Source: a virus
Taxonomy: Duplodnaviria > Caudoviricetes
Direction: 5' to 3' (one strand)
Virus record (IMG/VR): IMGVR_UViG_3300026863_000035
Coordinates: 1 to 32,030 of that record
DNA length: 32,030 bases
The position numbers and the translations under genes are program-made. Of this stretch, positions 3,820 to 24,641 are shown piece after piece. Below the pieces are notes generated by a model, which saw only the letters and a list, made by a program, of their open reading frames with translations, was not told the DNA's origin and did no database searches. Within the stretch, counting starts at the first letter, position 1; every line of letters begins with the position of its first letter.

Positions 3820-3885
3820 TTCGGCTGGGGGCGGGACCGTTGGGGGCAGTCGGACACACTTACTTTCACAAAGGATTTCAATGAG

Positions 3886-5819: not shown

Positions 5820-5822
5820 TTC

Positions 5823-5904
5823 GCATCACCGTAGCGAAATCGCCTTGACGTGGCGATTAAGGTTGAGTTAACGCTACACTGTAGCAAAATCGCTGCAATG
5901 TAGC
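5823..5904. promoter_or_regulatory. Three 13-bp operator-like palindromes
   Basis: GCATCACCGTAGC (5823-5835), GCTACACTGTAGC (5873-5885, perfect palindrome), GCTGCAATGTAGC (5892-5904). Confidence 0.7.
5857..5872 (+). promoter_or_regulatory. CtrA-binding consensus TTAA-N7-TTAAC
   Basis: TTAA GGTTGAG TTAAC, exact match, in the divergent intergenic region. Confidence 0.7.
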
Positions 5905-5917
5905 AATGAGGTTGACC

Positions 5918-6385: not shown

Positions 6386-6448
6386 TTATCCACAGGCGGA
6401 AATGTGGGGCAGCCCACACGTCAATTGACGCGCGCTTCTTTTCGTGGG

Positions 6449-7078
6449 ATGCCTCACGACATGAGCGCGCGTTTTTCATTCTCCATGAACCGTTTCGGCC
6501 CCACGCGGGCGGAAGAAATCAGCGGCGTGAGCCGGACCACGCAACGCGACTGGCGGCGCGAGGGCCATCTGCCGACTTCCGAGGGAATGGCCCGCTACGA
6601 TCTTTTCGACCTGTGCGAATTGTGGGTTCTCAAGTCGTGCGCGGACGTTGGCCTTGGTCCGAAGCGGGCAAAGGTGTTTTCGCGCTCGGCCGCGTTGCAT
6701 ATGGCGTGGCACTGCCTGCGGCTAATCGGCTCCTACGAGGGCGATCACCTGACCGCGCCGGCTTCGAAGCACAACAAGACCTTCGACCTGGGCGGGCAGA
6801 CCTTCGACACGCCGGCCTGGGGCCGGAAGGCGCGGTGGCTCGCCGATCACATCATGTACGACAAAGACGATCCGAACCCGTGCAGCGAGTTCTACGGCAT
6901 CTGGCCCGATGGCGAGGCGATGCCGATGGACAATTTCCATTCGATGTTCATGCCGGCCGACCGCGCCGTCGCGAAGCGTGGCGCGGTGATCGTGCTGCCC
7001 CTCAATCTCGCGGCAAACTGGCTTGTCGAGGCGGCGAACGAACCGCTCGTGCAGGTCACGTTCGAAAAAGGGGGATGA
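6449..7078 (+). CDS. MerR-like HTH DNA-binding protein
   Basis: FGPTRAEEISGVSRTTQRDWRREGHL...ARYDLFDL; start uncertain (6449/6461/6485). Confidence 0.65.
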   Translation: MPHDMSARFSFSMNRFGPTRAEEISGVSRTTQRDWRREGHLPTSEGMARYDLFDLCELWVLKSCADVGLGPKRAKVFSRSAALHMAWHCLRLIGSYEGDHLTAPASKHNKTFDLGGQTFDTPAWGRKARWLADHIMYDKDDPNPCSEFYGIWPDGEAMPMDNFHSMFMPADRAVAKRGAVIVLPLNLAANWLVEAANEPLVQVTFEKGG

Positions 7079-7138
7079 TTTCCACAGGAATTTTATCCTC
7101 ACCCTGCGAGGTGCGCGCATCATGCGTATCGAGTTTTC

Positions 7139-7226
7139 CCGTCGTGAGACGGCACTTCCCAGCACCGAACGTCGTGAGACGCCCGGCCCGATGGACCCTT
7201 AACCCCGCCGTGAGGCGGCACTTCCC
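7139..7226 (+). repeat. Three GTGA-tetraloop hairpins in the capsid leader
   Basis: CCGTC-GTGA-GACGG+CACTTCCC (7139-7160), CGTC-GTGA-GACG (7170-7181), CCGCC-GTGA-GGCGG+CACTTCCC (7205-7226). Confidence 0.75.
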
Positions 7227-7242
7227 AACGAAGGAGACTGAC

Positions 7243-8544
7243 ATGAAAATTCACGAATTGCAGGAAGCCCGCACGACGGCCGTCGTCAACATGCGGGCCT
7301 TGGCCGACCTGGCCGACACCGAAAAGCGCGACCTGACGGCCGACGAAGAAACCAAGTTCGGCACGTTCAAGTCGACCATCGCCGATCTCGACAAGAAGAT
7401 CAGCCGGGCGCAGACGCTCGCCGATGCCGAGCGCAGTTCGCCTGCCATCGTGCACGGCCGTCTCGGCGACGGCGCATTCGAGGAACGCGCCCGCGACTTT
7501 TCCATCGTCAAGTGCATCCGCTCGACGCTGCCGGCCAACATGGGCGGCGCGGTGGACATCGGCTTCGAGCGCGAGATCGGCACGGAAGTCGCGCGGCGCA
7601 CCGGCCGGGCCTATGAAGGCTTCGCCGTTCCGGATGAAATCTTCCTGACCGAGCGCCGCACGCTGCTGGCCGGCTCCAGCGCCGCCGATCTCATTCCCAA
7701 CGTGCACCGCACCGACCTGTTCATCAACCGGCTGCGCAACCGTCTCGTGGTCGGTCGGCTCGGCGCAACCTATCTCGACGGTCTTGTCGGCACGGTCGAC
7801 ATTCCGCGCCAGACGGGCAGCTCGACGGCCCAGTGGGTGGCCGAAGACGGCTCGCTCACCGAAACCGACGCAACGTTCGACGACGTGACGTTCGCGCCGA
7901 AAACGGTCGGCGCGATGACCAGCTACAGCCGGCGCACGATCATCAACGCATCGCCCGCGATCGAGAACATCGTGCGCGCCGATCTTGCCGCCGTAATCGC
8001 TTCCGCGATCGACGAAAAGGCGCTTGTTGGCACGGGCGCGAGCAATACCCCGGTCGGCATCACCAACACGGCCGGCGTGACGGAGATCGCGTTGACGGCT
8101 GCGCCGACCTGGGCGCAGGTGCTCCAGTTCATCGCGGCGATCGACGCCAGCAACGCGCTGGAAGGGTCTCTTGGCTGGGCCGGCAATCCGCACGTCGTGG
8201 CACTCATGCGCGCGGCCGTGAAGGTCACGTCCGACGCGGGCGCGGGCTTCATCATGGACGCGGCAAACGAGCTGGCCGGCTATCCACTGGTCAACACGAT
8301 GGCGCTGCCCGGCGTTGCGCCGGCTGCTACGCCGGAAGTGGCGTCGGCCCTGATCTTTGGCGACTGGTCGCAGCTCATGGTCGGCTCGTGGACCGGCATC
8401 GATATTCTCGCCAATCCTTATGAGACGACGGCCTATGCCAAGGGCCGCATTCTCGTGCGGGCGATGAAGGACGTGGACGTGCAGGTGCGCCAGCCGAAGG
8501 CGTTCGCGTTCACCGATACCATCGTCACCGGCACCGATGCATAG
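7243..8544 (+). CDS. Satellite major capsid protein (HK97 fold, coiled-coil delta domain)
   Basis: AAGGAG Shine-Dalgarno, MKIHELQE..., IPRQTG, AQWVAE, GDWSQL, ILANPY, VRQPKAF; 433 aa. Confidence 0.92.
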   Translation: MKIHELQEARTTAVVNMRALADLADTEKRDLTADEETKFGTFKSTIADLDKKISRAQTLADAERSSPAIVHGRLGDGAFEERARDFSIVKCIRSTLPANMGGAVDIGFEREIGTEVARRTGRAYEGFAVPDEIFLTERRTLLAGSSAADLIPNVHRTDLFINRLRNRLVVGRLGATYLDGLVGTVDIPRQTGSSTAQWVAEDGSLTETDATFDDVTFAPKTVGAMTSYSRRTIINASPAIENIVRADLAAVIASAIDEKALVGTGASNTPVGITNTAGVTEIALTAAPTWAQVLQFIAAIDASNALEGSLGWAGNPHVVALMRAAVKVTSDAGAGFIMDAANELAGYPLVNTMALPGVAPAATPEVASALIFGDWSQLMVGSWTGIDILANPYETTAYAKGRILVRAMKDVDVQVRQPKAFAFTDTIVTGTDA

Positions 8545-8556
8545 GGGGACATTGCC

Positions 8557-9111
8557 TTGACCCTCGAACGCCGGGTCGCTGTTGAGCTGAGGGCCGGGGG
8601 AGACAAGAAGTCCCCCCGGCTCATCGGCCATGCGGCCGTCTTCAACTCACCGTCGCAAGATTTGGGCGGCTTCACCGAGATCGTGCTGCCGGGTGCGTTC
8701 AAGCGCACGCTGGCGTCCGACCGCGACCCGCTGGCGCTCGTGCAGCATTTGCCGGCGCTCGTGCTTGGCCGGCGCTCGGCGGGCACGCTGCGCCTGCAAG
8801 AGGACGGGCGCGGCCTGGCATTCGAGATCGACGTGCCGGACACCAGCGCCGCCCGCGACCTTCTCGTGAGCGTCGAGCGCGGCGACGTGCGCGGCGCGAG
8901 CTTCGCGTTCTCGGTGCCCAAAGGCGGGGACCGCTGGCAGGTTCGCGGCGACCAGGTGGTGCGCGAGCTGGCCGACGTCGACCTGCACGAAGTCACGATC
9001 ACGGCGCAGCCGGCCTATCTCGACACGTCCGTCGCCCGCCGCTCCTACGAGCTGCAAATCCGCAACGCGCCGCGCCTCCGGGCGCTTCGCCGCTTTCTGG
9101 AGACGGTGTGA
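8557..9111 (+). CDS. Satellite HK97-family prohead protease
   Basis: GHAAVFNSPSQDLGGFTEIVLPGAF, VERGDVRGASFAF, LHEVTITAQPAY. Confidence 0.93.
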   Translation: MTLERRVAVELRAGGDKKSPRLIGHAAVFNSPSQDLGGFTEIVLPGAFKRTLASDRDPLALVQHLPALVLGRRSAGTLRLQEDGRGLAFEIDVPDTSAARDLLVSVERGDVRGASFAFSVPKGGDRWQVRGDQVVRELADVDLHEVTITAQPAYLDTSVARRSYELQIRNAPRLRALRRFLETV

Positions 9112-10343
9112 TGGAAGCCGCCACGATCTCGACCGAAAAGCGGTCGACGCCGACGACATGGGACTTGCTGCGCACCGGGGCCGACTATGGCACCGATGCC
9201 GGCGTTCCCGTGTCCCCCTATCTCGCCGAGAACCTGTCCGTAGTCTTCTCGTGCGTCCAGGTGATCGCCGAGACGGTCGGCATGTTGCCGTTGCTGGTCT
9301 ATCGCAAGATCGGCGACGGCGACCGTTCGCAGGATCCTGCGCACCCGGTCGCACAGATCTTCGGCGGCGATGCCAACGACCGGCAGACGGCAAGCGAGTT
9401 CATCGAAATGATGACCGCGCATTGCCTGTTGCGCGGCAACGCCTATGCCGAGATCGTGCGCGACGGCCGCGGTGCGCCCGTCCAGCTCATCCCCTACCAT
9501 CCCGACCATGTGAGCGTCGTGCGGCTCACCCGCACCGATCGCTACGCCTATGACGTGAGCCGGCCGGAAGGCGGCACCAGGCGCTTGCTGCCGGAAGAGA
9601 TGTTGCACCTTCGCGACCGTTCCGACGACGGCGTGGTCGGCAAGTCGCGCCTGGCGCGTGCGCGCGAGACGTTCGGCAGCGCCATCGCGACCGAACGCTA
9701 TGCGGCGTCGACCTTCAAGAACGGCGCATCCATGTCCGGCATTCTGTCGCACCCGGAAGCGATCGGCGAAGAAGCGGCCGACCGGCTGCAACGCGACTTC
9801 AAGCAGACCTATTCCGGCGCCGACCGTGCCGGCGCCGTCGCCGTGCTCGAGGAAGGCTTGAAGTGGCAACAGGTGAGCGTGTCGCCCGACGACGCGCAGA
9901 TGCTGGAAAGCCGCAAGTTCTCGACGATGGCGCTGGCGCGCATCTTCCGCGTGCCGCCGCCCGTGATCGGCGATTTCGAGGGCGGCAACTATTCGTCGAT
10001 CTCAGAAGTCGGCCGCTGGTTCCACTCGCACACCATCATGCCCTGGCTGGCGCGTTGGGAACGGCTGATCGAACACAGTCTGTTTTCGTCCATGACGCGG
10101 CGCTCGCTGGAGGTCGAATTTGACTGCGATCTCCTCCTACGCGGCGACATGCTGACCCGGTTCCAAGCCTACCGCATCGCCCGCGAGATCGGCGTCTACA
10201 ACGCCAACGAACTGCGCCGCTTCGAAAAGCAGAACCGTCGCACCGACCCGGCCGGCGACGAATATTTCGCGCCCGCCAACATGCAGCAGGAACAGACGGC
10301 CCGGCCTGTCGCCGATCGGAATGGAGGCGACAATGCCGAATAG
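9108..10343 (+). CDS. Satellite HK97-family portal protein
   Basis: VFSCVQVIAETVGMLP, LLRGNAY, VLEEGLKW, ARIFRVPP, NELRRFE. Confidence 0.93.
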   Translation: MMEAATISTEKRSTPTTWDLLRTGADYGTDAGVPVSPYLAENLSVVFSCVQVIAETVGMLPLLVYRKIGDGDRSQDPAHPVAQIFGGDANDRQTASEFIEMMTAHCLLRGNAYAEIVRDGRGAPVQLIPYHPDHVSVVRLTRTDRYAYDVSRPEGGTRRLLPEEMLHLRDRSDDGVVGKSRLARARETFGSAIATERYAASTFKNGASMSGILSHPEAIGEEAADRLQRDFKQTYSGADRAGAVAVLEEGLKWQQVSVSPDDAQMLESRKFSTMALARIFRVPPPVIGDFEGGNYSSISEVGRWFHSHTIMPWLARWERLIEHSLFSSMTRRSLEVEFDCDLLLRGDMLTRFQAYRIAREIGVYNANELRRFEKQNRRTDPAGDEYFAPANMQQEQTARPVADRNGGDNAE

Positions 10344-10932
10344 CCTTCTCTCCGTCACCACGGCCGCGACCGCCTTCAACATCGTCGACCTTGGCGTCGT
10401 GCGCGCCGCGCTCGGCATCGTCGACAACAGCGATGACGCGGCGCTGACCGGCCATCTCAATCGCGCGTCCGACGTGATCGCCCGCCAATGCAAGCGGACC
10501 TTCGCGCTGGAAACCGTCGAGGAACAGTTCCGGCTCGACCGCTGGCGCGAAGAGCTGATCCTGTCGCGCTATCCCGTCGTCGCGGTCGCGTCGATCGTCG
10601 AGGCGGGCTTGACGGTCGCGCCGGCCGACTATGAGGCCGACAAGGCCAAGGGCATCCTGTCGCGGCTCCACCAGGACAAGCCGTGCTGGTGGCCGGCGCA
10701 CAAGATCGTCGTCACCTACAGCGCCGGATACGATCTCCCGAACGCCGCGCCGGAAGCACTGCAACAGGCCTGCATTCAGCTCGTGAAGTCCTACTACATG
10801 GCGGCCGACCGCGACCCGATGGTGCGGTCGGAAAGCCTCGATGACGTGTCGGCCGCGTCCTACTTCGGGACCGGCGGGCACCTGCCGCCCGATGTGTCGG
10901 CGCTCCTGAAACAATTCCGCAAGCTCAAGTGA
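10333..10932 (+). CDS. Satellite head-tail connector (gp6-like)
   Basis: GGAGG then ATG 10333; LSRYPVVAV, VTYSAGY, PEALQQAC, ALLKQFR. Confidence 0.75.
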   Translation: MPNSLLSVTTAATAFNIVDLGVVRAALGIVDNSDDAALTGHLNRASDVIARQCKRTFALETVEEQFRLDRWREELILSRYPVVAVASIVEAGLTVAPADYEADKAKGILSRLHQDKPCWWPAHKIVVTYSAGYDLPNAAPEALQQACIQLVKSYYMAADRDPMVRSESLDDVSAASYFGTGGHLPPDVSALLKQFRKLK

Positions 10933-10941
10933 GGTGACGCC

Positions 10942-11352
10942 GTGCTCAATCCCGGTTCCTACACCCTGTTGTCGCGCCAGCTCACGACCGCCGTTGCCGG
11001 CGAGGCGCAGACCGCCGTCGACAAGCTCGCCGGCATCCTCGCCGCGACCCTGCAGTGCGAGTTCGCCTATGGCAGCGGCGGCACGAGCTGCAAGGTCTAT
11101 GCGCAGGTGTCGCTCGACAACGGCCTGTCCTGGGTGGACGTGGCGTGCTTCGCCTTCACCACGGCGAGCGCCGTCAAGGTGGTGAACCTCTCGGCGCAGA
11201 CGCCGGTCACGACGGCCGTCACGCCGGCACAGGCGAGCCTCACCGACAACACCGTGGTCGACGGCATCCTTGGTGCCGTCATGCGCGCCGTCGTGGTGTC
11301 GACCGGCACCTACGCCAACACGCAAGTCCGGCTGAGGCTCGACGCGAAATGA
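10942..11352 (+). CDS. Satellite hypothetical beta-rich virion protein
   Basis: 136 aa, T/A/V-rich, contains SLDNGLSW; GAGGT Shine-Dalgarno; lies between the connector genes. Confidence 0.6.
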   Translation: MLNPGSYTLLSRQLTTAVAGEAQTAVDKLAGILAATLQCEFAYGSGGTSCKVYAQVSLDNGLSWVDVACFAFTTASAVKVVNLSAQTPVTTAVTPAQASLTDNTVVDGILGAVMRAVVVSTGTYANTQVRLRLDAK

Positions 11353-11735
11353 GAAACCCGCACGTCGCCCGTCTGGACAGGCAAATTCGGCTCCATGGCG
11401 AGCCGGTCTTGCTCACGCGCCAGTTGGCCGGCGTGCGGCGTCATGTGCTCAACACGCGCGGCATCGTGAAGACCTTCGCGGCGGAACAGCTCATCGGGTC
11501 GATCACACAGACGAATTATCTGGTGATCCTGTCGCCGACCGATCTCCGCAACAAGGGCTTTCCCGGCGCGGTGCCGGAAGCGATCCCCAGCGGCACCGTG
11601 CCGCCTGCCGACCCGAACCTGCCGAACACGGGAGACGCGCTTGTGATCCGGGGCACGCAAAAGGCGATCGGGCAAGTCTCGGCGATCTATGACGGCGGCG
11701 AGATCGTGCGCATCGAAATCAAGGTGCTGGGATGA
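11349..11735 (+). CDS. Satellite head-closure/head-tail adaptor-like protein
   Basis: Coupled ATGA start, MRNPHVARLDRQIRLHGEPVLL...TGDALVIRG...VRIEIKVLG; call rests on size and position. Confidence 0.55.
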   Translation: MRNPHVARLDRQIRLHGEPVLLTRQLAGVRRHVLNTRGIVKTFAAEQLIGSITQTNYLVILSPTDLRNKGFPGAVPEAIPSGTVPPADPNLPNTGDALVIRGTQKAIGQVSAIYDGGEIVRIEIKVLG

Positions 11736-11992
11736 TGCGCGACCACGGCCCGCGTTCCTATCTGTCGTGCGCCTCGCTGGCGCACGAGCTGGATATGTCG
11801 GAGACGACTATTCACGAGATGGTCCGTCGTGGTGTGCTGCCGAGGCCGGTCAAGCTGTCATCCGGATGCGTCCGGTGGTGCTGGGCCGACGTGCAACGTG
11901 CGCTCGGCTCGCTGTCCGCCGAATACGCGAATGCCGCCGCTGCGGCCGACCCGTTCCTTGCGGGGGCACGCAATGCCACGTCAACGCAATAG
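11732..11992 (+). CDS. AlpA-family regulator/excisionase
   Basis: LAHELDMSETTIHEMVRRGVLPRPVKLSSGCVRW; immediately upstream of the integrase. Confidence 0.85.
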   Translation: MMRDHGPRSYLSCASLAHELDMSETTIHEMVRRGVLPRPVKLSSGCVRWCWADVQRALGSLSAEYANAAAAADPFLAGARNATSTQ

Positions 11993-13058
11993 AGCCGCCG
12001 TCAATCTACCCAAGGGCGTGCACCGTGTCGTCTCACGCGGTCGCGAATATTTCTATTTTCAGCCCGGCCGGGGCACGCCGCACGCCGGGCCACGCATCCC
12101 ATTGCCGAACGATCCTCACGCGCCTGAGTTCTGGAATGCGATCCGGCAGGCGCAGGGCCTTGTCGGCGCGGTGCCGGTCGACACGTTCGGCGCGGTGCTC
12201 GACGGCTATCTGGAGTTCATCAAATCGTCCGGCGCGCTCACGGCCGGCACGATTGACCAATACGACCGGGCGCTGCGCATCGGCCGGAAGGCTTGGGGCA
12301 ATCTGCCGGCGAAGGGTCTGCGCCCTGTGCATGTGCAAGCCGTCATGGACGGCCTGGCCGGCACCACGGGCAAGGCGAACAACTTCCTGAGCGCCATGCG
12401 GGCACTGTCGACGTGGGCGCGCGTCCGCGACCATATCGAGCACAGCTTGACCGAGGGCGTGAAGCCCTATGCGAAGGACACGGGGCACAAGCCTTGGACG
12501 CCGGAACAGATCGAGGCGGCGCTGTCAAAGCTGACTGGCGTGCTTCGTCGTGGCGTGGCGCTCTACCTGTGGACCGGGATGCGGGGCAGCGATGCCGTCC
12601 GGCTCGGCTGGACCGATATCGACGAAGGCGGGTTCTCCTACCGATCGCAAAAGACGGGCCGCGATGTCTGGTGCCCGATCGTCCCGGAACTTGCGGCCGA
12701 AATGGCCACCTGGGAAAAGCGGCCGGGACCGTTCCTCTATCACGACGGCGGAAGGGCAGACGGCCGGCGCTACTCTCGCAAGAAATTCTCTGAGCACTTC
12801 GCCGAGGCGCGGGACAAGGTGCCCGAGCTGGCCGGCGTCACGCTGCACGGGCTGCGCTGCACGGCCGTCATCCGCCTGCGCCGCGCCGGCCTCTCGACGG
12901 CGCAGATCGGCGATATCGTCGGCATGTCCCTTCCGATGATCGAACGCTACTGCCGGTTCGCCGATCGCAAGGCCAGCGGCATGGCCGCGCTGTTCACGTT
13001 GAAGGAACGGGCGAAGAACGAAACTGTAAAACACGGCAAAACCGTAAAGCATAAATAG
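11973..13058 (+). CDS. int: Tyrosine recombinase/integrase
   Basis: TGMRGSD (R), SQKTG (K), LHGLR (HxxR), IERY (Y); ends about 35 bp before attR. Confidence 0.93.
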   Translation: MPRQRNRAAVNLPKGVHRVVSRGREYFYFQPGRGTPHAGPRIPLPNDPHAPEFWNAIRQAQGLVGAVPVDTFGAVLDGYLEFIKSSGALTAGTIDQYDRALRIGRKAWGNLPAKGLRPVHVQAVMDGLAGTTGKANNFLSAMRALSTWARVRDHIEHSLTEGVKPYAKDTGHKPWTPEQIEAALSKLTGVLRRGVALYLWTGMRGSDAVRLGWTDIDEGGFSYRSQKTGRDVWCPIVPELAAEMATWEKRPGPFLYHDGGRADGRRYSRKKFSEHFAEARDKVPELAGVTLHGLRCTAVIRLRRAGLSTAQIGDIVGMSLPMIERYCRFADRKASGMAALFTLKERAKNETVKHGKTVKHK

Positions 13059-13086
13059 AGCAAAATCAGGAGGTTAGAGGTCGCCA

Positions 13087-13100
13087 GATGAAATGTGCGA
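13087..13100 (+). repeat. attR core of the satellite
   Basis: ATGTGCGA at 13093-13100; IHF-like WATCAR-N4-TTR at 13064-13076. Confidence 0.85.
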
Positions 13101-13218
13101 TTTCGGCGCCGACGGTCTCGCCAATGGCCGCTCGCCCGACCGCGTCGATGCGCTGGTCTGGGCCGTGACCGAGCTGATGCGCGGGGCAGGCGCGGGGCCG
13201 AGGGTGCGGGGGATGTGA
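13093..13218 (+). pseudogene. terL: GTA large terminase, displaced C-terminal part
   Basis: Hand translation: MCDFGADGLANGRSPDRVDALVWAVTELMRGAGAGPRVRGM*, the typical GTA TerL ending; joins the upstream part in frame at the core. Confidence 0.92.
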
Positions 13219-13220
13219 GG

Positions 13221-13290
13221 GAGTAGTGAGTAGTGAGTAGTGAGTAGTGAGTAGTGAATAGTGAATAGTGAGTAGTGAATAGTGAATAGT
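13221..13290 (+). repeat. Heptamer tandem array, 10 x GARTAGT
   Basis: Counted directly: 6 GAGTAGT plus 4 GAATAGT. Confidence 0.95.
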
Positions 13291-13365
13291 GCAAAGTCTG
13301 ACTAAAATAAATATATTTCGGCATTTTAGATTTAATTTGTGATGATAAAGCTGCATGGTGAAACC

Positions 13366-13484
13366 ACTACTCACTACTCACTACTCACTACTCACTACTC
13401 ACTACTCACTACTCACTACTCACTACTCACTACTCACTACTCACTACTCACTACTCACTACTCACTACTCACTACTCACTATTC
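13366..13484 (-). repeat. Heptamer tandem array, 17 x ACTAYTC (inverse of the first array)
   Basis: 16 ACTACTC plus 1 ACTATTC. Confidence 0.95.
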
Positions 13485-13520: not shown

Positions 13521-15362
13521 ATGGCATGGACATGGCCCTGGCGCGCGGGCGCCGGGAACGAGCGTTTACGGCCCGAGCACAAGGGGCTGGCGGGCGGTTT
13601 CGTCGCTTTCCACCTCCAGAGCGACGCAGCGTGGACGCGGCGCGATTTTGCGACGCTTTCGCGCGAGGGGTTCATGCGCAACCCCATCGTGCACCGCACG
13701 GTGCGGCTGATTTCCGAGACGGCGGCGGCCATTCCGTGGCTGGTCTTCGACGGGGCAGAAGAGATCACCGAGCATCCACTGCTGGACCTCTTGGAGCGGC
13801 CCAATGCCGGCCAGGCGGGCGGGGCTTTTCTCGAGGCCGCCTATGGCAATCTGCTGATTTCCGGCAATGCCTATGTCGAGCTGGTCGAGGCCGGGCCGAG
13901 CTTGCGCGAACTGCATCTCCTGCGCCCCGACCGGGTGACGGTGGCGAGCGATGCGCGGGGCTGGCCGGTGGCGCTGGAATACCGCAGCGGGTCTGAGCGG
14001 CGCATGCTGCCGACATCGGGCGCGCGGCCGGCGGCGGGCACCGCGCTGCACCTCAAGCTCTATCACCCGCTCGACGACCATTATGGCTTTCCGCCGCTGG
14101 AAGCAGCGTCGATGGCGCTCGACACGCACAATGCGGCGGGCCGCTGGAACAAGGCGCTGCTCGACAATTCGGCGAGGCCCTCGGGCGCGCTGGTCTATGC
14201 GCCCAAGGAGGGCGGCAATCTCTCCGACGAGCAGTTCGCCCGGCTGAAGGAGGAGCTGGAGAACGGCTATACGGGCGCCGCGCGCGCCGGACGGCCGCTT
14301 CTGCTGGAAGGCGGGCTCGACTGGAAGGCGATGGGCCTGACGCCCAAGGACATGGACTTCATCGAGGCCAAGAATGCGGCGAGCCGCGACATCGCGCTCG
14401 CTTTCGGCGTGCCACCGATGCTGCTCGGCATTCCGGGCGACAACACTTTTGCCAACTACCAGGAGGCCAACCGCGCCTTCTACCGCATGACCGTGCTGCC
14501 GCTGGTGGCGCGCACCGCCAAGGAGTTTTCGGCCTGGCTGGCGCCGCTCTACAGGCCGGGGCTAAAACTGTGGTACGACGTCGACCAGGTCGACGGGCTG
14601 GCGACCGAGCGCGAGGCGGTGTGGGCCCGCGTCGGCGCGGCGAGCTTTCTCAGCGATGACGAGAAGCGCGCGGCGGTGGGGTATGGGGTGAGGGAGGGCT
14701 TCGACGCCAAGGCTGGCTATCGGCCGGATCAGCCGCGCATGCCGCGCGGAAGCGAGAACGGCGGCCAATGGATGGCGGACGGGAGCGCGCCGGTCATTCG
14801 CGTCCAGTCCGGCCCCCGCCGTACCGGAACCGGTCCGCCACGACGCATCGCGGGACGCTCGGTCGACATTTCACCTGCGCAGGCTACCCGATTGGAGCTG
14901 AGCCAGGCGCAGATGCAGGCTGCGGTCACGCGAGTGAGAGAATTGCAGCCGCGATGGAAACCGACCCCCAGTGCATATGAGACGGTTGAAGGTCAGATCG
15001 CCGCGAACGAAGCAGCAACGCGGGAAGCGCTGAATCGGCTTTTCGTTCTGCAACGGGAAGGGCTGGGGCCCGGTCCATTCGCCGGGGAGTCACAGCCCGC
15101 GCGCGGATCGGGCCGCCGCTGGACGACCGAGGAAATTCGGGAGAATAATCGGATCGGCAAGACGTTTGGCTGCCATACGTGCGGAACTCGGGATCCCGGA
15201 CTAGGCAACGGAAATTTCATACTCGATCATCAGCGCCCCAACGCTCTGAACTCGGAGGGTCAAGCGCAGCGCATATTTCCTCAATGCGCGACATGCAGCC
15301 GGCGGCAAGGGGGAAAAATCAGAGCGCTGATCTATAGAGGGTACCATGATTCAGACAATTAA
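13521..15362 (+). CDS. GTA portal protein (g3) fused to a C-terminal HNH toxin-like domain
   Basis: Portal core (GFMRNPIVHR, GRPLLLEGGLDWK, IALAFGVPPMLLGIPGDNT, EKRAAVGYG) ends about aa 389. Then YRPDQPRMPRGSENGGQW, GCHTCG, LDHQ, CATC. Confidence 0.88.
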   Translation: MAWTWPWRAGAGNERLRPEHKGLAGGFVAFHLQSDAAWTRRDFATLSREGFMRNPIVHRTVRLISETAAAIPWLVFDGAEEITEHPLLDLLERPNAGQAGGAFLEAAYGNLLISGNAYVELVEAGPSLRELHLLRPDRVTVASDARGWPVALEYRSGSERRMLPTSGARPAAGTALHLKLYHPLDDHYGFPPLEAASMALDTHNAAGRWNKALLDNSARPSGALVYAPKEGGNLSDEQFARLKEELENGYTGAARAGRPLLLEGGLDWKAMGLTPKDMDFIEAKNAASRDIALAFGVPPMLLGIPGDNTFANYQEANRAFYRMTVLPLVARTAKEFSAWLAPLYRPGLKLWYDVDQVDGLATEREAVWARVGAASFLSDDEKRAAVGYGVREGFDAKAGYRPDQPRMPRGSENGGQWMADGSAPVIRVQSGPRRTGTGPPRRIAGRSVDISPAQATRLELSQAQMQAAVTRVRELQPRWKPTPSAYETVEGQIAANEAATREALNRLFVLQREGLGPGPFAGESQPARGSGRRWTTEEIRENNRIGKTFGCHTCGTRDPGLGNGNFILDHQRPNALNSEGQAQRIFPQCATCSRRQGGKIRALIYRGYHDSDN

Positions 15363-15711
15363 ACGACCGATGGAAAATGGTCTTCTGTTCGTCGAGGATG
15401 TGAAAGGTGGCGAACCGCCCGATCCGGTGACCGACGATGTGGTGCAATTCACCGCATCCTGCATCTCGGTTGCTTGCCTTCACGAAATGGACGGCGAGGC
15501 CGAATTCCTGCTCGGACCTGCGGACGAGGTCGCGCCGGCCTACGATCTCGCCTTTGATGGAAATCTCGAGACCCCCAGTCGGGAGCTGATACTTTCCGCC
15601 GTGACGGGCGAGCCGTTTCTGAAAGCAAAGGTACCGGACGTGCTGACCCGTGTCCGCATCTGGCGCAGCCATCCCCGCTGGCCGGAGACAGTGGCCGTCG
15701 GTTGGGGATAA
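15346..15711 (+). CDS. Putative immunity protein 1
   Basis: 121 aa, acidic, overlaps the toxin stop codon; paralog of the next gene. Confidence 0.65.
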   Translation: MIQTIKRPMENGLLFVEDVKGGEPPDPVTDDVVQFTASCISVACLHEMDGEAEFLLGPADEVAPAYDLAFDGNLETPSRELILSAVTGEPFLKAKVPDVLTRVRIWRSHPRWPETVAVGWG

Positions 15712-15760: not shown

Positions 15761-16147
15761 ATGAGCAGCTCGGTCACCCTCGCGCCTTCGCACGCCTTGC
15801 TGTTCATATCGGATCGGTCAGGCGGCGAAGCTCCCGAGTTCACGGCTGACACGCCGATCATGTCTACGGACACCGGCATCCTGGTCCATTGCCTTCCCGA
15901 TATGGACGGCGACACAACGGTGACGCTTGGAAGGGTAGCGGACGTCGGGCTGCCGCAGACTCCGGTCTTCGATGGGATCATCAAACTGCCGACCAAAAAT
16001 CTGATGGTTGCGACCGTCGAGGACGACGGCATTCGTTTGGACACTGTGCCGACAGTCGAAACACGCATCCGCATCTGGACCAACAGGGCGCTCGACCCCG
16101 ACGACATCGTCATCGGCTGGGGCGAGGGGGATGTCGCGGCGGCGTAG
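15761..16147 (+). CDS. Putative immunity protein 2 (paralog)
   Basis: Shares LLF, CLxxMDG, FDGxxxxP, RxRIW and xGWG with 15346-15711; GGAGG Shine-Dalgarno. Confidence 0.65.
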   Translation: MSSSVTLAPSHALLFISDRSGGEAPEFTADTPIMSTDTGILVHCLPDMDGDTTVTLGRVADVGLPQTPVFDGIIKLPTKNLMVATVEDDGIRLDTVPTVETRIRIWTNRALDPDDIVIGWGEGDVAAA

Positions 16148-16284
16148 CTGAAAGATCTGCGGCGGCACGGTGCAGGTGCCGTCAGGTCGAACGCCGCTCA
16201 CGCAGATGTGTGTTTGACACTGCGCGGCCTGGGAAGCACACTTCACGGCATCGCTTTTGTCCCCGGTCTGAAAGTGAGGCTCGC

Positions 16285-16773
16285 ATGATCTTCCTTCAGG
16301 ATGGCAGCTTCCCGAACGTCGGCGAGTTTCTCAGAACCAAGATGCGCGTTTTCGAGCATAGCCACGCGTTCATCTTCAAGGCGTTCGTCGTCGCCCTGCA
16401 AGGGGATCGCAAGCTTGCGCGAAAGGCCCTGGCGGCGGGCACCTATCCGATGCTGAAGATCGTCGATGAGTTTCCGGAGCACTGCGGCATTTCAGGCCTG
16501 GCGAAACACACCGCGCCCGCTGCGTTCTGCGACGGAACACCGAACTACATTTACTTCAAGACCGGGTTTGCAAGGGGTTTCGAGACCGGGAACCTGGATG
16601 AAACGGACATTACAAGAACCCTCCTGCACGAATGTGTCCATTGGGGGCGGCAAAAGAAAGGACTGCCCTCCAGAATACATGGCAATGAAGCGGGAGACAT
16701 GTTCGAATATCTGGCCGGCTATGACACGAAGTTGAAAGACCATTCAGATCATCCCGGGCCGCAATATCAATAG
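16285..16773 (+). CDS. HExxH zinc metallopeptidase, Tox-MPTase-like
   Basis: TLLHECVHWGR...NEAGDMFE; GAGG before ATG 16285. Confidence 0.7.
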   Translation: MIFLQDGSFPNVGEFLRTKMRVFEHSHAFIFKAFVVALQGDRKLARKALAAGTYPMLKIVDEFPEHCGISGLAKHTAPAAFCDGTPNYIYFKTGFARGFETGNLDETDITRTLLHECVHWGRQKKGLPSRIHGNEAGDMFEYLAGYDTKLKDHSDHPGPQYQ

Positions 16774-16920: not shown

Positions 16921-17271
16921 ATGACGGACATGTCCGCGCCCGCCTGGCTGTGGGCGGCCAAGGCTGCTGGCGCGGTGGCGGGGTCGGCGGTGTCGCTGGT
17001 CTACATCCTGCCGTCCGGCCGGCGCGAGGCCGCGGCGCGCTTTGCCGTCGGCGTCGTCTGCGGCCTCGTCTTCGGCGGCACGGCGGGGCTGAAGATAGCA
17101 ACCGAACTCGGCATCGACGGCACGATCGGCCCGGTCGAGATGGCGCTGATGGGATCGGCGGCGGCAAGCCTGTGCGCCTGGTGGGCGCTGGGCTTCCTGC
17201 TGCGCGCACTGCAGCGCGGCCGGGTGGGCGATCCCGCCAGGACGTCGACGCCCAAGAAGGACGGCGACTGA
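16921..17271 (+). CDS. GTA-associated small membrane protein (DUF6107-like)
   Basis: Hydrophobic; WAAKAAGAVAGSAVSLVYILP...SLCAWWALG; lies between portal and protease. Confidence 0.7.
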   Translation: MTDMSAPAWLWAAKAAGAVAGSAVSLVYILPSGRREAAARFAVGVVCGLVFGGTAGLKIATELGIDGTIGPVEMALMGSAAASLCAWWALGFLLRALQRGRVGDPARTSTPKKDGD

Positions 17272-17336: not shown

Positions 17337-18026
17337 ATGAGCGCGGAAAAACGCATGGGCTGCGAGCGCAAATTCGTCGACATGGTGCTGGGCGAGGTCG
17401 AGCCGGACGGCAGTTTTGCCGGCTATGCCAGCCTGTTTGGCCGTGTCGATCTCGGCAAGGATCTGGTCGAGCGCGGCGCTTTCGCCCGCTCGCTGAAGGA
17501 GCGCGGCACGGGCGGGATCCGCATGCTCTACCAGCACGATCCGGCGCAGCCGATCGGCACCTGGACCGAAATCCGCGAGGACACGCGCGGCCTTTTCGTC
17601 CGCGGCCGGCTGGCCAGGGACGTGGCGCGCGGCCGGGAAGTGCTGTCGCTGATGCGCCAGGGCGCGCTCGACGGGCTGTCGATCGGCTTTCGCACGGTCA
17701 AGGCGCGCAGCGACGCTCCGACAGGCGTGCGCCACATCCTGGAGGCGGATCTTTGGGAGATTTCCGTCGTGACCTTCCCGATGCTGCCTGGCGCCCGCGT
17801 CGAGACGGTGAAGGGCAGGCGGCAGCCCGCGCTGCCGACCATGGTGGCCATCGAACGCGCTCTGGTCAAGGGCACGGGCCTGACGGGCGACGAGGCGCGA
17901 GGCGTCGCCGCCGGCGGCGACCCCATGCTCACGCGATGGAAGATGGGCGGCGACCCGACCGCCAGGCTGGCGGCAAAAATCCGCCAGGCGACACGCATCA
18001 TCAAGCAGAAGAGGACCACACCATGA
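17337..18026 (+). CDS. GTA prohead protease (g4)
   Basis: FAGYASLFG, MLYQHDP, LDGLSIGF, LWEISVVTFPM; AAGGAGG Shine-Dalgarno. Confidence 0.93.
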   Translation: MSAEKRMGCERKFVDMVLGEVEPDGSFAGYASLFGRVDLGKDLVERGAFARSLKERGTGGIRMLYQHDPAQPIGTWTEIREDTRGLFVRGRLARDVARGREVLSLMRQGALDGLSIGFRTVKARSDAPTGVRHILEADLWEISVVTFPMLPGARVETVKGRRQPALPTMVAIERALVKGTGLTGDEARGVAAGGDPMLTRWKMGGDPTARLAAKIRQATRIIKQKRTTP

Positions 18027-19279
18027 CTGTACTGGACGGACAGACCGGGCTCGAGACCAAGGCGGCTGGCGACGGCGCAGAGCTTGCCGACGCCTTTGGC
18101 GATTTCATGCACACATTCGAGGCGTTTCGCGAGGCCAATGACGAGAAGCTGGCAGCACTCGAACGGCGCGCCGGTGCCGACGTCGTGACGGCAGAGAAGG
18201 TCGACCGCATCTCGCGCGGGCTCGACGAGCAGAAGCGGGCGCTCGACCAGCTGTCGCGGAAGCGGGCCCGCCCGGCGCTCGGCCAGGGACTGGCGGGCCG
18301 CGAGACGTCGGAGCACAAGAGCGCCTTCGACGCCTATCTCCGCAGCGGCGAGGACCGCGCGCTGCGTGTGCTCGACACCAAGGCGATGTCCTACGGCTCC
18401 GGGCCGGATGGCGGCTACCTCGTGCCGCCGGAGGTCGAGACGGAAATCGGCCGGCGCCTGTCGGTGCTGTCGCCGATCCGCTCCATCGCCTCGGTGCGGC
18501 AGGTGTCGTCGGCCGTGCTGAAGAAGCCGTTCTCGATCTCCGGTCCGGCCGTTGGCTGGGTCGCCGAAACCGCGTCGCGGCCGCAGACGGCGTCGAGCAC
18601 GCTGGCAGAGCTGCAGTTTCCGACCATGGAGCTCTACGCCATGCCGGCGGCGACGCCGACCCTGCTGGAGGACGCGGTGGTCGATCTCGACCAGTGGATT
18701 TCCGCAGAAGTCGAGACGGCCTTCGCCGAGCAGGAGGGCACCGCCTTCGTGACCGGCGACGGCACCAACAAGCCGAAGGGTTTCCTGGGTTACACCAATG
18801 TCGCGGAGGCGAGCTGGAGCTGGGGCAATATCGGCTACATCGCGACCGGCGTGGCCGGCGCGCTGCCGGCGAGCGACCCGTCCGACATACTGATCGATAC
18901 GGTCTATGCGCTGAAGGCGGGCTATCGCCAGAACGCCTCCTTCGTGATGAACCGCAAGACCCAGGCCTCGATCCGCAAGCTGAAGGACGCCGACGGCAAC
19001 TATCTCTGGCAGCCGCCGGCCGGACCCGGCCAGCGCGCCATGCTGATGGGCTTTCCCCTGGTCGAGGCCGAGGACATGCCGGATGCGGCGACGAATGCCA
19101 CGCCGATCGCCTTCGGCGATTTTTCGCGCGGCTATCTCGTCGTCGACCGCACCGGCGTCAAGGTGCTGCGCGATCCGTATTCCGCAAAGCCCTACGTGCT
19201 GTTCTACACGACCAAGCGCGTCGGCGGCGGGGTGCAGGACTTTGATGCGATCAAGCTGCTGAAGTACGGCGTTTCGTAA
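18023..19279 (+). CDS. GTA major capsid protein (g5)
   Basis: DGGYLVP, ELYAMPAAT, GTNKPKGFL, LRDPYSAKPYVLFYTTKRVGGGV. Confidence 0.96.
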   Translation: MTVLDGQTGLETKAAGDGAELADAFGDFMHTFEAFREANDEKLAALERRAGADVVTAEKVDRISRGLDEQKRALDQLSRKRARPALGQGLAGRETSEHKSAFDAYLRSGEDRALRVLDTKAMSYGSGPDGGYLVPPEVETEIGRRLSVLSPIRSIASVRQVSSAVLKKPFSISGPAVGWVAETASRPQTASSTLAELQFPTMELYAMPAATPTLLEDAVVDLDQWISAEVETAFAEQEGTAFVTGDGTNKPKGFLGYTNVAEASWSWGNIGYIATGVAGALPASDPSDILIDTVYALKAGYRQNASFVMNRKTQASIRKLKDADGNYLWQPPAGPGQRAMLMGFPLVEAEDMPDAATNATPIAFGDFSRGYLVVDRTGVKVLRDPYSAKPYVLFYTTKRVGGGVQDFDAIKLLKYGVS

Positions 19280-19541: not shown

Positions 19542-20111
19542 ATGACCTTGATTCTGACCGGGGCTCCGGAGGCGGAGCCCGTGACGCTGACGGATGCCAG
19601 GAATTTTCTCCGGCTGCCGGGCACGGCGGACGACGAGCTGCTGTCCGGCCTGATCACCGCGGCACGGCAGGATGTCGAGCGCGCGACGGGGCTCGCGCTG
19701 ATCGACCAGACCTGGCGGCTGGCGATCGACCGGCTGCCGCAAAGCGACATGGCGACGCTGCTCCGCCATCCCGTGCGCGAGATACTGTCGGTGACCGTCT
19801 TCGGCAGCGAGGGCGAGGCGTCGCTGGTCGATCCCGCCGACTACCAGGCGGATCTCATGTCGCGGCCGGCGCGGCTGCTGTTTGTCACACGGCCCGCAAT
19901 GGCGCGCGCGATGAACGGGCTGGAGATCGATTTCCGCGCCGGCTTCGGCGAGGCGGGACCCGACGTGCCCGACCTGCTGCGCCGGGCAATCCTGCTTCTG
20001 GTGGCGCATTGGTACGAGTTTCGCGCCAGTTTCGGCCCGGGCGACCAGCCGGTGTCCTACCCGCAAAATTACGAGCGGATGATCGCCTCCTATCGCGACC
20101 GGAGGCTGTGA
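19542..20111 (+). CDS. GTA head-tail connector (g6)
   Basis: EPVTLTDARNFLRL, TGLALIDQTW, AGFG, LVAHWYE. Confidence 0.9.
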   Translation: MTLILTGAPEAEPVTLTDARNFLRLPGTADDELLSGLITAARQDVERATGLALIDQTWRLAIDRLPQSDMATLLRHPVREILSVTVFGSEGEASLVDPADYQADLMSRPARLLFVTRPAMARAMNGLEIDFRAGFGEAGPDVPDLLRRAILLLVAHWYEFRASFGPGDQPVSYPQNYERMIASYRDRRL

Positions 20112-20446
20112 TGCCGACGCTTTTCGTCGACCCCGGCGCCTTGCGCACCGAGCTTTCGCTACAGGCGCAAGACAACGGCGCCGACGGCATGGGCGGGCTG
20201 GTCGAAGGCTGGACCGAAATTGCGACCGTGTTCGGCCAGATCGAGCCGCGCGCGCAGGCAAGTGGTTTTGGCGCCGGCCAGACGCTGGAGACGCTGACGC
20301 ACCGCATCACGATCCGGCATCGCCCGGGCGTCGAAAGCGGCATGCGGCTGGTACGGCAGGCGCGCAGCTTCGACATCCTGACGGTGCACGACCCGGACGA
20401 AACCGGCCGCTATCTGGTCTGCCGGGTGAGGGAGGAGGGCGCATGA
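20111..20446 (+). CDS. GTA head closure protein (g7)
   Basis: DPGALR, DGMGG, THRITIRHR, DPDETGRYLVC. Confidence 0.88.
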   Translation: MPTLFVDPGALRTELSLQAQDNGADGMGGLVEGWTEIATVFGQIEPRAQASGFGAGQTLETLTHRITIRHRPGVESGMRLVRQARSFDILTVHDPDETGRYLVCRVREEGA

Positions 20447-20637
20447 AAGAGACGATGGCACTGACGCGGGCTGGAATAGAGCAAGCGCTGCGGACGGCGG
20501 CACAGATGCCGCTCCTGGCGAGGGAGCGCGACAGCAGGGATGTGTTCGTGCCGAGGGCGGAACTGAGCACCGATGCGTTGCGCCTGCTGTCGCAGCGACG
20601 CGTGAAGGGAATCGACGATGACTTCGCCGACCGCTGA
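20443..20637 (+). CDS. Small hypothetical protein in the GTA operon
   Basis: ATGA-coupled to g7; fills the gap before g8. Confidence 0.4.
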   Translation: MKETMALTRAGIEQALRTAAQMPLLARERDSRDVFVPRAELSTDALRLLSQRRVKGIDDDFADR

Positions 20638-21025
20638 GCTGCAACGCGCCGTCTTCGAGACGCTTTCCGCGAGCGCGGCGCTGACCGCGCTGCTGGGCGG
20701 CGCGAAGATTCACGACCACGCGCCCGCCCATGTGGCGTTTCCCACCATCACCTTCGGCAATGCGACGCTCGCCGACTGGAGCACCGCGACGGAGCAAGGC
20801 AGCGAGCAGATCGTGACGCTGCATGTCTGGTCGAAGGGCAAGGGCAAGAAGCAGGTGCTCGACATCATGGATGCCGTGCGCGGCCTGATCGACGACGCGG
20901 CGCTTAGCCTTGCGGGTCACCACCTGGTGTCGATCCGCCTGCGCGCCGCGGAGGCGCGCTTCGACGACGACCTCGCGGTGCATCACGGGCTGATGCGCTT
21001 TCGCGCGCTGATCGAAGTCATCTGA
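20618..21025 (+). CDS. GTA tail completion protein, DUF3168 (g8)
   Basis: LQRAVF, DWST, TLHVWS, HGLMRFRALIE. Confidence 0.88.
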   Translation: MTSPTAELQRAVFETLSASAALTALLGGAKIHDHAPAHVAFPTITFGNATLADWSTATEQGSEQIVTLHVWSKGKGKKQVLDIMDAVRGLIDDAALSLAGHHLVSIRLRAAEARFDDDLAVHHGLMRFRALIEVI

Positions 21026-21076
21026 GCGCAAGAACCGAAACCCAAATTCTCAAAAGACAAAAAACCGGAGACCGAC

Positions 21077-21493
21077 ATGGCTGCACAGAAGGGCAAGGAC
21101 CTCCTGCTCAAGATCGATTCGACAGGGCTCGGCGCCTTCGTCACGGTGGCCGGGCTGCGCGCCAAGCGGCTGGCGTTCAACAGCGAGACGGTGGACGTGA
21201 CCGACGCGGATTCGGCTGGGCGCTGGCGTGAACTGCTGGCCGGCAGCGGCGTGCAGCGCGCGTCGCTGGCGGGCTCCGGCATCTTCAAGGACGCGGCCTC
21301 GGACGCCGCGATCCGCACGACATTCTTCGATGCCGCGATCGTCGACTGGCAGTTCGCCATTCCGGATTTCGGCGTGGTGGAAGGGCCGTTCCAGATCACG
21401 GCGCTCGAATATTCCGGCAATCACGATGGCGAAGTGACCTTCGAGATCGCGCTGGAATCGGCCGGCGCCCTCAGCTTCGCGGTGGCGGCATGA
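21077..21493 (+). CDS. GTA major tail tube protein, TP901-1 family (g9)
   Basis: MAAQKGKDLLLKI, GRWRELL, LEYSGNHDGE. Confidence 0.95.
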   Translation: MAAQKGKDLLLKIDSTGLGAFVTVAGLRAKRLAFNSETVDVTDADSAGRWRELLAGSGVQRASLAGSGIFKDAASDAAIRTTFFDAAIVDWQFAIPDFGVVEGPFQITALEYSGNHDGEVTFEIALESAGALSFAVAA

Positions 21494-21831
21494 GCGCGAA
21501 CCGGAGGCGCGGCGAGATCTTTGCCGAGCTCGACGGCAAGGGGTTCCGGCTCTGCCTGACGCTCGGCGCGCTGGCGGAGCTCGAGGCCGCCTATGCGGCC
21601 GAGGACCTGACGGCCCTGGTCGGGCGGTTCTCGACGGGAAAACTGTCGGCGACGGACATGATCCGCGTCATCGGCGCGGGCCTGCGCGGCGCGGGTCACG
21701 CGATCGAGGACGCGGAGGTGGGCGCCATGACGGCGAGCGGCGGGGCGGCGGGCTTTGCCGCCATCGTCGCCGATCTCCTTACCGCGACCTTCGGCGGCAA
21801 GGCTGAGAAGGCCGCACAGCTGGACCCTTGA
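21490..21831 (+). CDS. GTA tail assembly chaperone (g10)
   Basis: ANRRRGEI, LCLTLGALAELE, GAGLRGAG. Confidence 0.9.
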   Translation: MSANRRRGEIFAELDGKGFRLCLTLGALAELEAAYAAEDLTALVGRFSTGKLSATDMIRVIGAGLRGAGHAIEDAEVGAMTASGGAAGFAAIVADLLTATFGGKAEKAAQLDP

Positions 21832-22040
21832 GGGCCGCAGCGGGCAGCGCCGCCGCCTTTCCGTGGGACAGCGTGATGGCGACCGGTTTTGGCCTGCTGC
21901 GGCTTTCGCCCAAAAATTTCTGGTCGATGACCCCGCGCGAGATGGAGCGCGCCATGAGCGTGTTCCGCCCAGTGGCGGGCGCGGCGCCCATGCGGGCCGA
22001 GCTCGCGGCACTTATGACTGAATTTCCAGACGGGAGATGA
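21828..22040 (+). CDS. GTA tail chaperone C-terminal part (rcc01693/g10.1-like)
   Basis: FPW, GLLRLSPKNFWSMTPRE, LMTEFPD. Confidence 0.85.
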   Translation: MRAAAGSAAAFPWDSVMATGFGLLRLSPKNFWSMTPREMERAMSVFRPVAGAAPMRAELAALMTEFPDGR

Positions 22041-22591
22041 CCATGGTGGATGTGCCGGACCGGCTCGACATCGAGATCGACGCCGACACCAGGCCGATCG
22101 AGGATGCGCTGCGCGACCTGACCAGCCTGTCGCACCAGTTCGGCGCGCAACTGACATCCGCGCTGAGGAGCGCCGTGGTGGGCGGCAAGGACCTCGACGA
22201 CATATTGCGCAGGATCGCGTTGAACCTGGCCGGCATGGCGCTGAGCAGGGGTTTGCAGCCGCTGCAGTCGCTGGCGGGCTCGCTGTTTTCCAATCTGATC
22301 GGCGCGCTGGTGCCGGCTGCGGCTGGCGGCATCGCGCCATTCGCGGCCGACGGCGGGATCGCCGCGCCGAGCTACTTTCCGACGGCGGCTGGGCCGGGAC
22401 TGGCGGAAGGCGCTGCTGGGTTGCCGGGCGCCATACCGGGCAATGGGCCTGCCGGGGCGGCGTCGGGCGGCGGCGCGGTGAGCGTCGTCTTTAACGTCAC
22501 CACGCCGGATGCGGCGAGCTTCAGGAAGTCCGAGGCGCAGGTGACCGGCATGCTGGCGCGGGCGGTATCTCGCGGCGGCCGGACATTTTGA
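22037..22591 (+). CDS. GTA short tape measure protein (g11)
   Basis: 184 aa; NVTTPDAASFRKSEAQV...ARAVSRGGR. Confidence 0.85.
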   Translation: MTMVDVPDRLDIEIDADTRPIEDALRDLTSLSHQFGAQLTSALRSAVVGGKDLDDILRRIALNLAGMALSRGLQPLQSLAGSLFSNLIGALVPAAAGGIAPFAADGGIAAPSYFPTAAGPGLAEGAAGLPGAIPGNGPAGAASGGGAVSVVFNVTTPDAASFRKSEAQVTGMLARAVSRGGRTF

Positions 22592-22636
22592 GACTCGCCC
22601 TGACGAGTTTGGAAAACAGTCTCTGAGAGAAATGAC

Positions 22637-24620: not shown

Positions 24621-24641
24621 ACCACCGGGACCATCCAGACC

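Follow-up and report, generated by a model that had tools for sequence, protein, structure and literature searches.

What does a portal protein carry when it runs on for 224 residues past its normal end and a small acidic gene overlaps its stop codon? The question is raised by a 32,030-nucleotide stretch of DNA assigned to the Caudoviricetes (positions 1 to 32,030 of IMG/VR record IMGVR_UViG_3300026863_000035; "the window" below means this whole stretch), which holds a gene transfer agent (GTA) cluster of the kind known from Rhodobacter capsulatus (RcGTA). A first-pass annotation made from the letters alone had read the gene as a GTA portal fused to an HNH nuclease tip with a coupled immunity-like gene. 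We regard the gene and its surroundings, with high confidence, as a polymorphic toxin-immunity locus and, judging from sequence, find that a small minority of alphaproteobacterial GTAs have portals that end in exchangeable toxin-like domains, each followed by a predicted antidote gene.

The portal fusion

A single uninterrupted open reading frame (ORF) on the plus strand (13521-15362) encodes 613 amino acids. The normal portal end, EKRAAVGYG, lies at residues 381-389 and finishes at nucleotide 14687, so that the 224 further residues reported by the annotation belong to the same frame. A Pfam scan of the whole protein gave Phage_portal (PF04860; residues 56-386, E 3e-86) as its sole match, with no MuF domain, and residues 24-388 correspond to the RcGTA portal (Rcc01684/6tba; E 1.7e-114). 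Beyond the portal, the landmarks are KAGYRPDQPR from residue 397, GGQW at 414, GCHTCG at 550, LDHQ at 568 and CATC at 589, and the GC content of third codon positions (GC3) is 0.66 in the tip and immunity genes versus 0.86 in the portal core. The fusion and the gene that follows it are composed of:

13521-14687, plus strand: RcGTA-type (HK97-family) portal core, residues 1-389 (PF04860; Rcc01684/6tba; GC3 0.86)
14688-14771, plus strand: spacer, Lys397 (predicted prohead-protease site) and the conserved [FY]xPxQPRxPxG..GGQW motif (residues 400-417)
14895-15056, plus strand: predicted two-helix hairpin, residues 459-512 (AlphaFold2 (AF2) model; predicted local distance difference test (pLDDT) 89-97 there)
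15060-15362, plus strand: divergent HNH/Endo VII-like zinc-finger tip with C551xxC554, D569-H570, C589xxC592, S593 and Q596 (31 homologues, T4 Endo VII, 4h9d)
15346-15711, plus strand: predicted cognate immunity protein, 121 amino acids, isoelectric point 4.5, ComJ/Imm21-like predicted fold, no Pfam family

The annotation had allowed for a frameshift near 14685-14695. The join is no frameshift, because the same DNA recurs in a 466-kb metagenome contig (L029; 100% identity across 9080 nt) and in L002 (99.8% across 8839 nt, with a single gap), and because four other portals share the tip. These four (P0002, P0003, P0004 and P0006), found among 29 homologues of the extension of which 24 were inspected, are GTA-type portals that bear the window's tip in frame at 62-72% identity. 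Further independent in-frame fusions are present in L084 and four more genomes.

Exchange of tips behind a constant portal end

A DNA pattern spanning the portal end and the linker was found at 8 viral and 29 metagenome loci, four of the latter (L020, L023, L042 and L043) being chance matches that were dropped. Behind the same linker stand RNAse_A_bac tips (L021, L022, L030 and L032; in L022 followed by a weak CdiI_2 match, E 7e-4), a weak deaminase match followed by Imm1 (L018), a tip without family name followed by Imm-NTF2-2 (L034), a CHAP tip (L035) and, at other loci, several more tip families without a name. A profile search of 1.84 billion representatives returned 1360 matches, and 94 of the best 150 contained the portal end and linker; 75 of these 94 had tips of at least 80 amino acids, which fell into 36 single-linkage clusters, some of the singletons resembling truncated or frameshifted junk. 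The largest cluster (21 tips) is RNase A-like, and the window's tip clusters with three others. Pfam analysis of 97 proteins added DddA-like, CdiA_C and WHH/Colicin-DNase tips, while a short-region homology search for the portal end and linker gave two proteins only and a scan of genome contigs with the tip gave one locus. The portal end and linker therefore stay constant while tips and downstream genes change in step, as the annotation had proposed; far from being invariant, the tip behaves as the variable end of a polymorphic toxin, and the PRxPxG...GGQW-type linker that the annotation recognised proves to be a conserved [FY]xPxQPRxPxG..GGQW motif ahead of unrelated tips.

In L015, L021, L035, L041, L077 and L079 portal 3' fragments are repeated or a second cassette is present, and tip exchange by recombination with spare cassettes has been described (Zhang 2012, PMC3482391). 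A rapid phylogeny of 50 portals (23 tipped and 27 untipped, the untipped rows being the top matches of a profile built from tipped portals) required nine label changes, at least five of them forced by strong branches. In this tree, in which L031 is misaligned and L076 is tipped but labelled untipped, tipped portals are scattered and close portals bear unrelated tips: the window portal pairs with an RNase-tipped portal (support 86), and L006 and L011 are paired (96) despite their differing tips.

In L004, L005, L008, L009, L033, L083 and L106 the reading frame is interrupted by a stop or frameshift, either just past the normal end of the portal or within the linker. An in-frame stop stands at the normal portal end in L033 and L083, and the length of the G-run at the join differs between P0003 and L008, L025 and L097. 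Downstream of the G-run change or stop the tip stays intact in L008, L025, L097, L033, L083, L004 and L106. These stops and G-run differences could represent decay, phase variation, readthrough, or the tipping of some subunits only.

The tip and its downstream gene

Neither the tip nor the two immunity genes of the window had Pfam matches above the cut-off, and members of the tip family gave only sub-threshold matches to HNH/Endonuclease_7. The top PDB profile match of the tip is the HNH endonuclease 4h9d (E 0.018), and HNH-type rows in the Atlas (0.76-0.83) serve as leads only. An alignment-based AF2 model (pLDDT 84) predicts a helical hairpin followed by a zinc-finger domain, and the hairpin is also found ahead of an unrelated tip in L013 and L078. 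Only one row of the fold search (VIA) spans the C-terminal domain, namely T4 Endo VII (Z 5.0, root-mean-square deviation 3.5 Å, 75 residues aligned), the remaining rows mostly reflecting the generic hairpin. Both CxxC pairs and the first-strand Asp-His of HNH/His-Me finger nucleases are present: across 31 homologues the four Cys, Asp569 and Gln596 are invariant, His570 is kept in 30 of 31, and the residue following the second CxxC is Ser in 30 of 31, with the Gln three residues further on. The same tip terminates an RHS protein (P0029), a placement that would be typical of a toxin domain.

The downstream gene begins 17 nt before the end of the portal ORF, confirming the overlap described by the annotation, and is preceded by a purine-rich site resembling a Shine-Dalgarno sequence. 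Its family has 132 homologues, the named ones mostly from Mesorhizobium, Aminobacter and Rhizobiaceae, and is present in 27 of 251 genomes of the family of G001, a genome in which the GTA portal is untipped. The tip is directly upstream of the immunity gene in 24 of 28 loci (two overlapping loci excluded), and the gene also follows the same tip on an unrelated phage-type portal (L012). The Atlas model of the immunity protein resembles ComJ (TM-score 0.70-0.76) and an Imm21 cluster (0.62), these being predicted models that lie under the naming bar, and none of 83 family members matched PF11033 or PF15589 at E<=0.1. ComJ proteins inhibit nucleases and form an immunity family (PMC3482391). A single-sequence AlphaFold model of the immunity protein (pLDDT 34.5) was discarded.

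The modelled complex of tip and immunity protein scored 0.76, the best of three controls scoring 0.00; among solved complexes 116 of 157 attain the mark used, as do 2 of 215 mismatched pairs. Model runs agreed in at least 87% of contacts, with a partner pLDDT of at least 90, and the modelled interface comprises tip residues 560-568 and 590-605, a surface that adjoins the Asp-His and covers the helix carrying Ser593 and Gln596. The model supports binding of the immunity protein over the catalytic-type helix, and together with its position at the 24 loci the gene behaves as a cognate immunity gene, which is what the annotation had suspected. Two further genes, overlooked by the annotation, come next:

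15761-16147, plus strand: second, likewise acidic immunity paralogue (blastp E 9e-23, 32% identical to the first, same family)
16285-16773, plus strand: orphan Tox-MPTase3 (HExxH) toxin-type gene without linker (PF15639, E 2.7e-8, above cut-off; GC3 0.69)

The paralogue is likely the leftover of an earlier tip. Such orphan cassettes or immunity strings (15761-16773 in the window) are also found in L015, L024, L035 and L092, and in L092 four immunity copies lie in tandem.

The linker and the head protease

Of 62 distinct contexts, which are related sequences and not independent, 61 have a Lys at most three residues ahead of the motif's aromatic residue, whereas control windows held it in 2, 12 and 3 of 62; in the portal fusions it is scored in 72 of 94. 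The scaffold junction of the GTA capsid reads xxK/A (the slash marking the junction) in all 22 listed, the RcGTA capsid has the same junction, and in the RcGTA particle the capsid N-terminus is modelled near it (residues 99-106 of 398). We take it that HK97-type proteases cut after this junction Lys; the literature searched contained no statement of the cleavage site of the RcGTA protease. GTA proteases themselves often show xxK/F ahead of the catalytic domain. A Lys resembling head-protease sites before the linker suggests release of the tip by the head protease, and since the identifiable carriers (portals and, in L080, the GTA prohead protease fused to linker and tip) are head proteins, loading into the prohead followed by proteolytic release would be the expected route.

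In L080 (G049; oriented, 3699-9700) the portal and the prohead protease both bear the linker and related, amidase-looking tips. Linker and tip also occur behind short helical leaders inside head operons (L059 and L078) and elsewhere in chromosomes. In L045, L046 and L081-L107 they form standalone genes away from the GTA cluster, each with a helical leader of 20-85 residues ending in L-x-K-A-G, then linker, tip and immunity gene. L012 (1988-4515) and L013 (1435-10072) contain a second, phage-type terminase-portal-protease-capsid cluster with linker-tip portal fusions, together with several standalone linker-tip genes and DUF6968 genes.

The motif also repeats within large polyvalent proteins of phage type, where as many as 11 stretches matched; the 24 such proteins scanned hold ADP-ribosyltransferases, GNAT, Nudix, Acb1, zeta toxin or MuF. 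It is preceded by Lys in 106 of 122 such cases (controls 14-21), a count biased by the Lys column in the profile that found these proteins, and polyvalent proteins without the Lys repeat an alternative residue of their own (Leu in P0249, Ala/Gly in P0292). The repeated motif may represent a general head-protease polyprotein grammar. P0153, P0154, P0157, P0159, P0246 and about 25 more are proteins of 500-4000 amino acids in which the motif stands ahead of successive effector domains, usually after a Lys.

The GTA cluster and the element inserted in terL

The remaining genes of the cluster, and the element that splits its terL and had escaped the annotation, are as follows:

1208-2461, plus strand: 5' part (~410 amino acids, at 1208-2440) of the GTA large terminase, cut by the inserted element
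2429-13100, plus strand: inserted tail-less capsid-forming element with its own TerL, HNH, capsid, protease, portal, connector, helix-turn-helix protein and integrase
13087-13218, plus strand: 3' part (~41 amino acids, with SPDRVDALVWA) of the GTA large terminase (tblastn 76% identity, E 7e-14)
16921-17271, plus strand: DUF6107, which in G001 directly follows an untipped portal
17337-18026, plus strand: GTA prohead protease (S78), the predicted releasing enzyme, with ERK/F before the catalytic domain
18023-19279, plus strand: GTA major capsid protein with scaffold junction DTK/AMS (Rcc01687, E 7e-96)
19542-28544, plus strand: rest of the GTA (adaptor, stopper, tail completion, tube, gp10, short gene in the position of the tape-measure protein, DUF2460, hub, NlpC/P60, megatron)

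The RcGTA order is thus found as terL-portal-protease-capsid-adaptor-stopper-tube-gp10-DUF2460-hub-NlpC/P60-megatron (GTA_TIM), and the portal and capsid are orthologous to Rcc01684 and Rcc01687. The inserted element, which sits in the 3' end of the GTA terL, is bounded by ATGTGCGA, with copies at 2429 and 13093, and contains an integrase; no tail gene was seen among its identified genes. It could represent a satellite, which would shut down packaging by the GTA and make use of the GTA's tails. Across 9080 nt the window is identical to part of the 466-kb contig L029. At the tipped loci L022, L040, L078 and L079 the terL is unsplit, as far as the query reached. The capsid ORF of the element (6193-8544) encodes 783 amino acids, with the capsid domain confined to residues 500-773 and the N-terminal part without annotation. 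Upstream of the portal, inverted tandem arrays of heptamers (GAGTAGT and CTACTCA types; 13218-13294 and 13365-13481) flank an AT-rich stretch.

Proposed mechanism and alternative explanations

The fusion, the exchange of tips, the tip-specific downstream genes, the spare cassettes and the conserved Lys can all be read directly from the sequences compared, and they are compatible with delivery of the tip by the particle. The fusion would assemble as a portal and, because it sits at the crown end, its tips would face the interior of the prohead. The prohead protease would then free each tip at Lys397, leaving [FY]xPxQPR..GGQW near the new N-terminus as a putative loading or ejection tag, and on ejection the freed tips would pass into recipient cells together with the DNA. 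The immunity protein would hold a DNase tip in check while the particle is assembled, siblings that share the immunity gene would be spared, and new tips would be gained by recombination through the repeated portal end. For the whole chain, from a prohead-loaded portal tip through protease release and exit with the DNA to immunity that shields producer and siblings, we consider the chances to be about even. The wider proposition is that some GTAs are armed, using strain-specific toxins carried by the portal, the protease or as standalone cargo to kill or disarm non-immune recipients, with Lys-[FY]xPxQPR..GGQW as a general head-protease cut site and ejection tag shared with phage polyvalent proteins; this we think possible, though on balance doubtful.

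A number of observations weigh against this chain. Among the 150 matches listed, the intact portal-tip join was found in 4 of 279 matching genomes (from 401 of the order of G001), plus one eroded case; scoring classed 7 of 27 main portal-linker loci as broken or short, a pair of which prove to be a normal portal with a separate gene, and tips are often silenced. The linker-tip module is commoner as a standalone gene than as a portal fusion, and only 7 of 28 immunity loci lie within a GTA cluster, most being standalone leader-linker-tip genes. When a profile was built from 19 standalone leaders, it gave no match among 85 frames of GTA proteases, capsids or portals, which leaves a shared capsid-targeting sequence unsupported. 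The Lys was not scored in 22 of 94 portal fusions, and 10 of the 17 listed have Arg. The most frequent tip resembles an RNase rather than a DNase, and Foldseek with the window's tip model gave no match at E<=0.001. In the 4h9d alignment the canonical HNH Asn positions are replaced by Ser593 and Gln596, so that we call the tip at most HNH-like and a likely DNase; the HNH nuclease of the annotation retains its CxxC pairs and Asp-His and lacks these Asn residues. A DNase in a DNA-filled head would endanger the cargo and would have to be held inactive. The GTA terL of the window is split by the 10.7-kb element, which probably keeps this GTA from packaging DNA as long as the element has not been excised. 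Lastly, RcGTA delivers into the periplasm and uptake of its DNA needs competence proteins (PMC7296036), so that RNase and DNase tips need an extra route into the cytoplasm; the immunity protein, in which no signal peptide is visible by eye, looks cytoplasmic.

The rarity of the intact join among the matches listed, the stops and frameshifts at seven loci, the more numerous standalone copies and the low GC3 of tip and immunity genes would suit a different account, in which phage-derived mobile leader-linker-tip-immunity modules enter the GTA head operon as passengers, the fusions being short-lived and costly, with no useful delivery, and the pair being kept as an addiction module. We regard this as unlikely: the fusions are precise and in frame across many portal lineages, the spare cassettes bring portal 3' ends with them, the Lys and motif are retained, and a second head protein (the protease of L080) is also tipped. 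The toxin might instead act in the producer, where a head protease (of the GTA, an invading phage or a satellite) would free the tip late and cause shut-off, suicide or poisoning of GTA hijackers, with immunity setting the threshold. Such action avoids the periplasm problem, a tail-less capsid-forming element occupies the terL of this very cluster, and the sharing of the motif with phage polyvalent effector proteins means that foreign head proteases could recognise the linker; tip exchange, cognate immunity and spare cassettes are, however, the pattern of inter-strain competition (PMC3482391). CHAP-type tips (L035) would moreover work outside the cytoplasm, and we judge action in the producer to be improbable.

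T4 endonuclease VII and terminase-associated HNH proteins trim or resolve DNA during packaging. The annotation had itself offered a packaging-accessory nuclease as an alternative, with the tip trimming or resolving DNA at the portal, and the T4 Endo VII fold row and the split terL of the window would fit it. The same slot takes RNases, deaminases and amidases, however, nearly all GTA portals are without a tip, and this tip has a dedicated predicted inhibitor and also occurs on an RHS protein, all of which makes a packaging role very unlikely. The G-rich join with its varying G-run (P0003 versus L008, L025 and L097) might point to a sequencing or assembly artefact joining two genes, but the identical join in L002 and L029 and the independent in-frame fusions in P0002-4, P0006, L084 and four more genomes reduce the probability of this to a negligible level.

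It is puzzling that cells should retain a GTA programme that is lethal to them and seems altruistic. If portal-borne toxins are delivered as proposed, a toxin payload with sibling immunity would give GTA producers a direct competitive benefit, and gene transfer by armed GTAs would become kin-selective. The fusions point to a further candidate route by which polymorphic toxins may be delivered, and they bring to light dozens of tip-immunity pairs yet to be characterised. The shared motif yields a rule, open to testing, for the processing and ejection of internal effectors by phage heads, and the Lys-[FY]xPxQPR..GGQW unit, if it is such a cut site and tag, could be used to load chosen proteins into HK97-type heads.

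Comparison with known systems

Head-borne polymorphic toxins (MuF) and phage portal-effector fusions are already published (PMC3482391, PMC5576092, PMC5512222, PMC9503650, PMC12226406). In the literature searched, which left most subscription papers and supplements outside, we found no description of GTA portals as toxin carriers, nor of the context of the motif; we consider the fusion of a GTA portal to a toxin-type tip real, and the proposed delivery step plausible. The phrase "gene transfer" is absent from the main text of Jamet 2017 (PMC5576092), as is "gene transfer agent" from the part consulted of Zhang 2012 (PMC3482391), and the Lys-preceded motif was not found in the portions consulted, supplements aside, of the polyvalent-protein papers.

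The MuF toxins of temperate phages likewise place a variable tip on a head protein of the packaging module, with immunity downstream and co-delivery with DNA proposed, a delivery that is still a hypothesis (PMC3482391, PMC5576092). In contrast, the carrier here is the portal itself, a dodecamer, and the element that hosts it is a domesticated GTA, with ejection into the periplasm. In phages, PBECR, 2H, InPase, Nudix and ART domains are found on portal or MuF and are presumed to be injected (Iyer 2017, PMC5512222; PMC9503650), and the linker motif of the window recurs between the domains of phage polyvalent proteins; these phage portal effectors target the infected host, whereas the present locus holds toxin-immunity pairs with spare cassettes in a GTA. 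RcGTA is alike in portal, capsid, gene order and tail genes, but its portal of 396 amino acids has no tip and no immunity genes accompany it (Bardy 2020, PMC7296036). With contact-dependent inhibition (CDI) and Rhs systems the tips have families in common (RNAse_A_bac, CdiA_C, DddA-like and WHH), as well as the toxin-immunity order and orphan cassettes, although the window locus is without their secretion-system domains. The ComI-ComJ nuclease-inhibitor pair offers a further parallel, in that the predicted fold of the window's immunity protein resembles that of ComJ.

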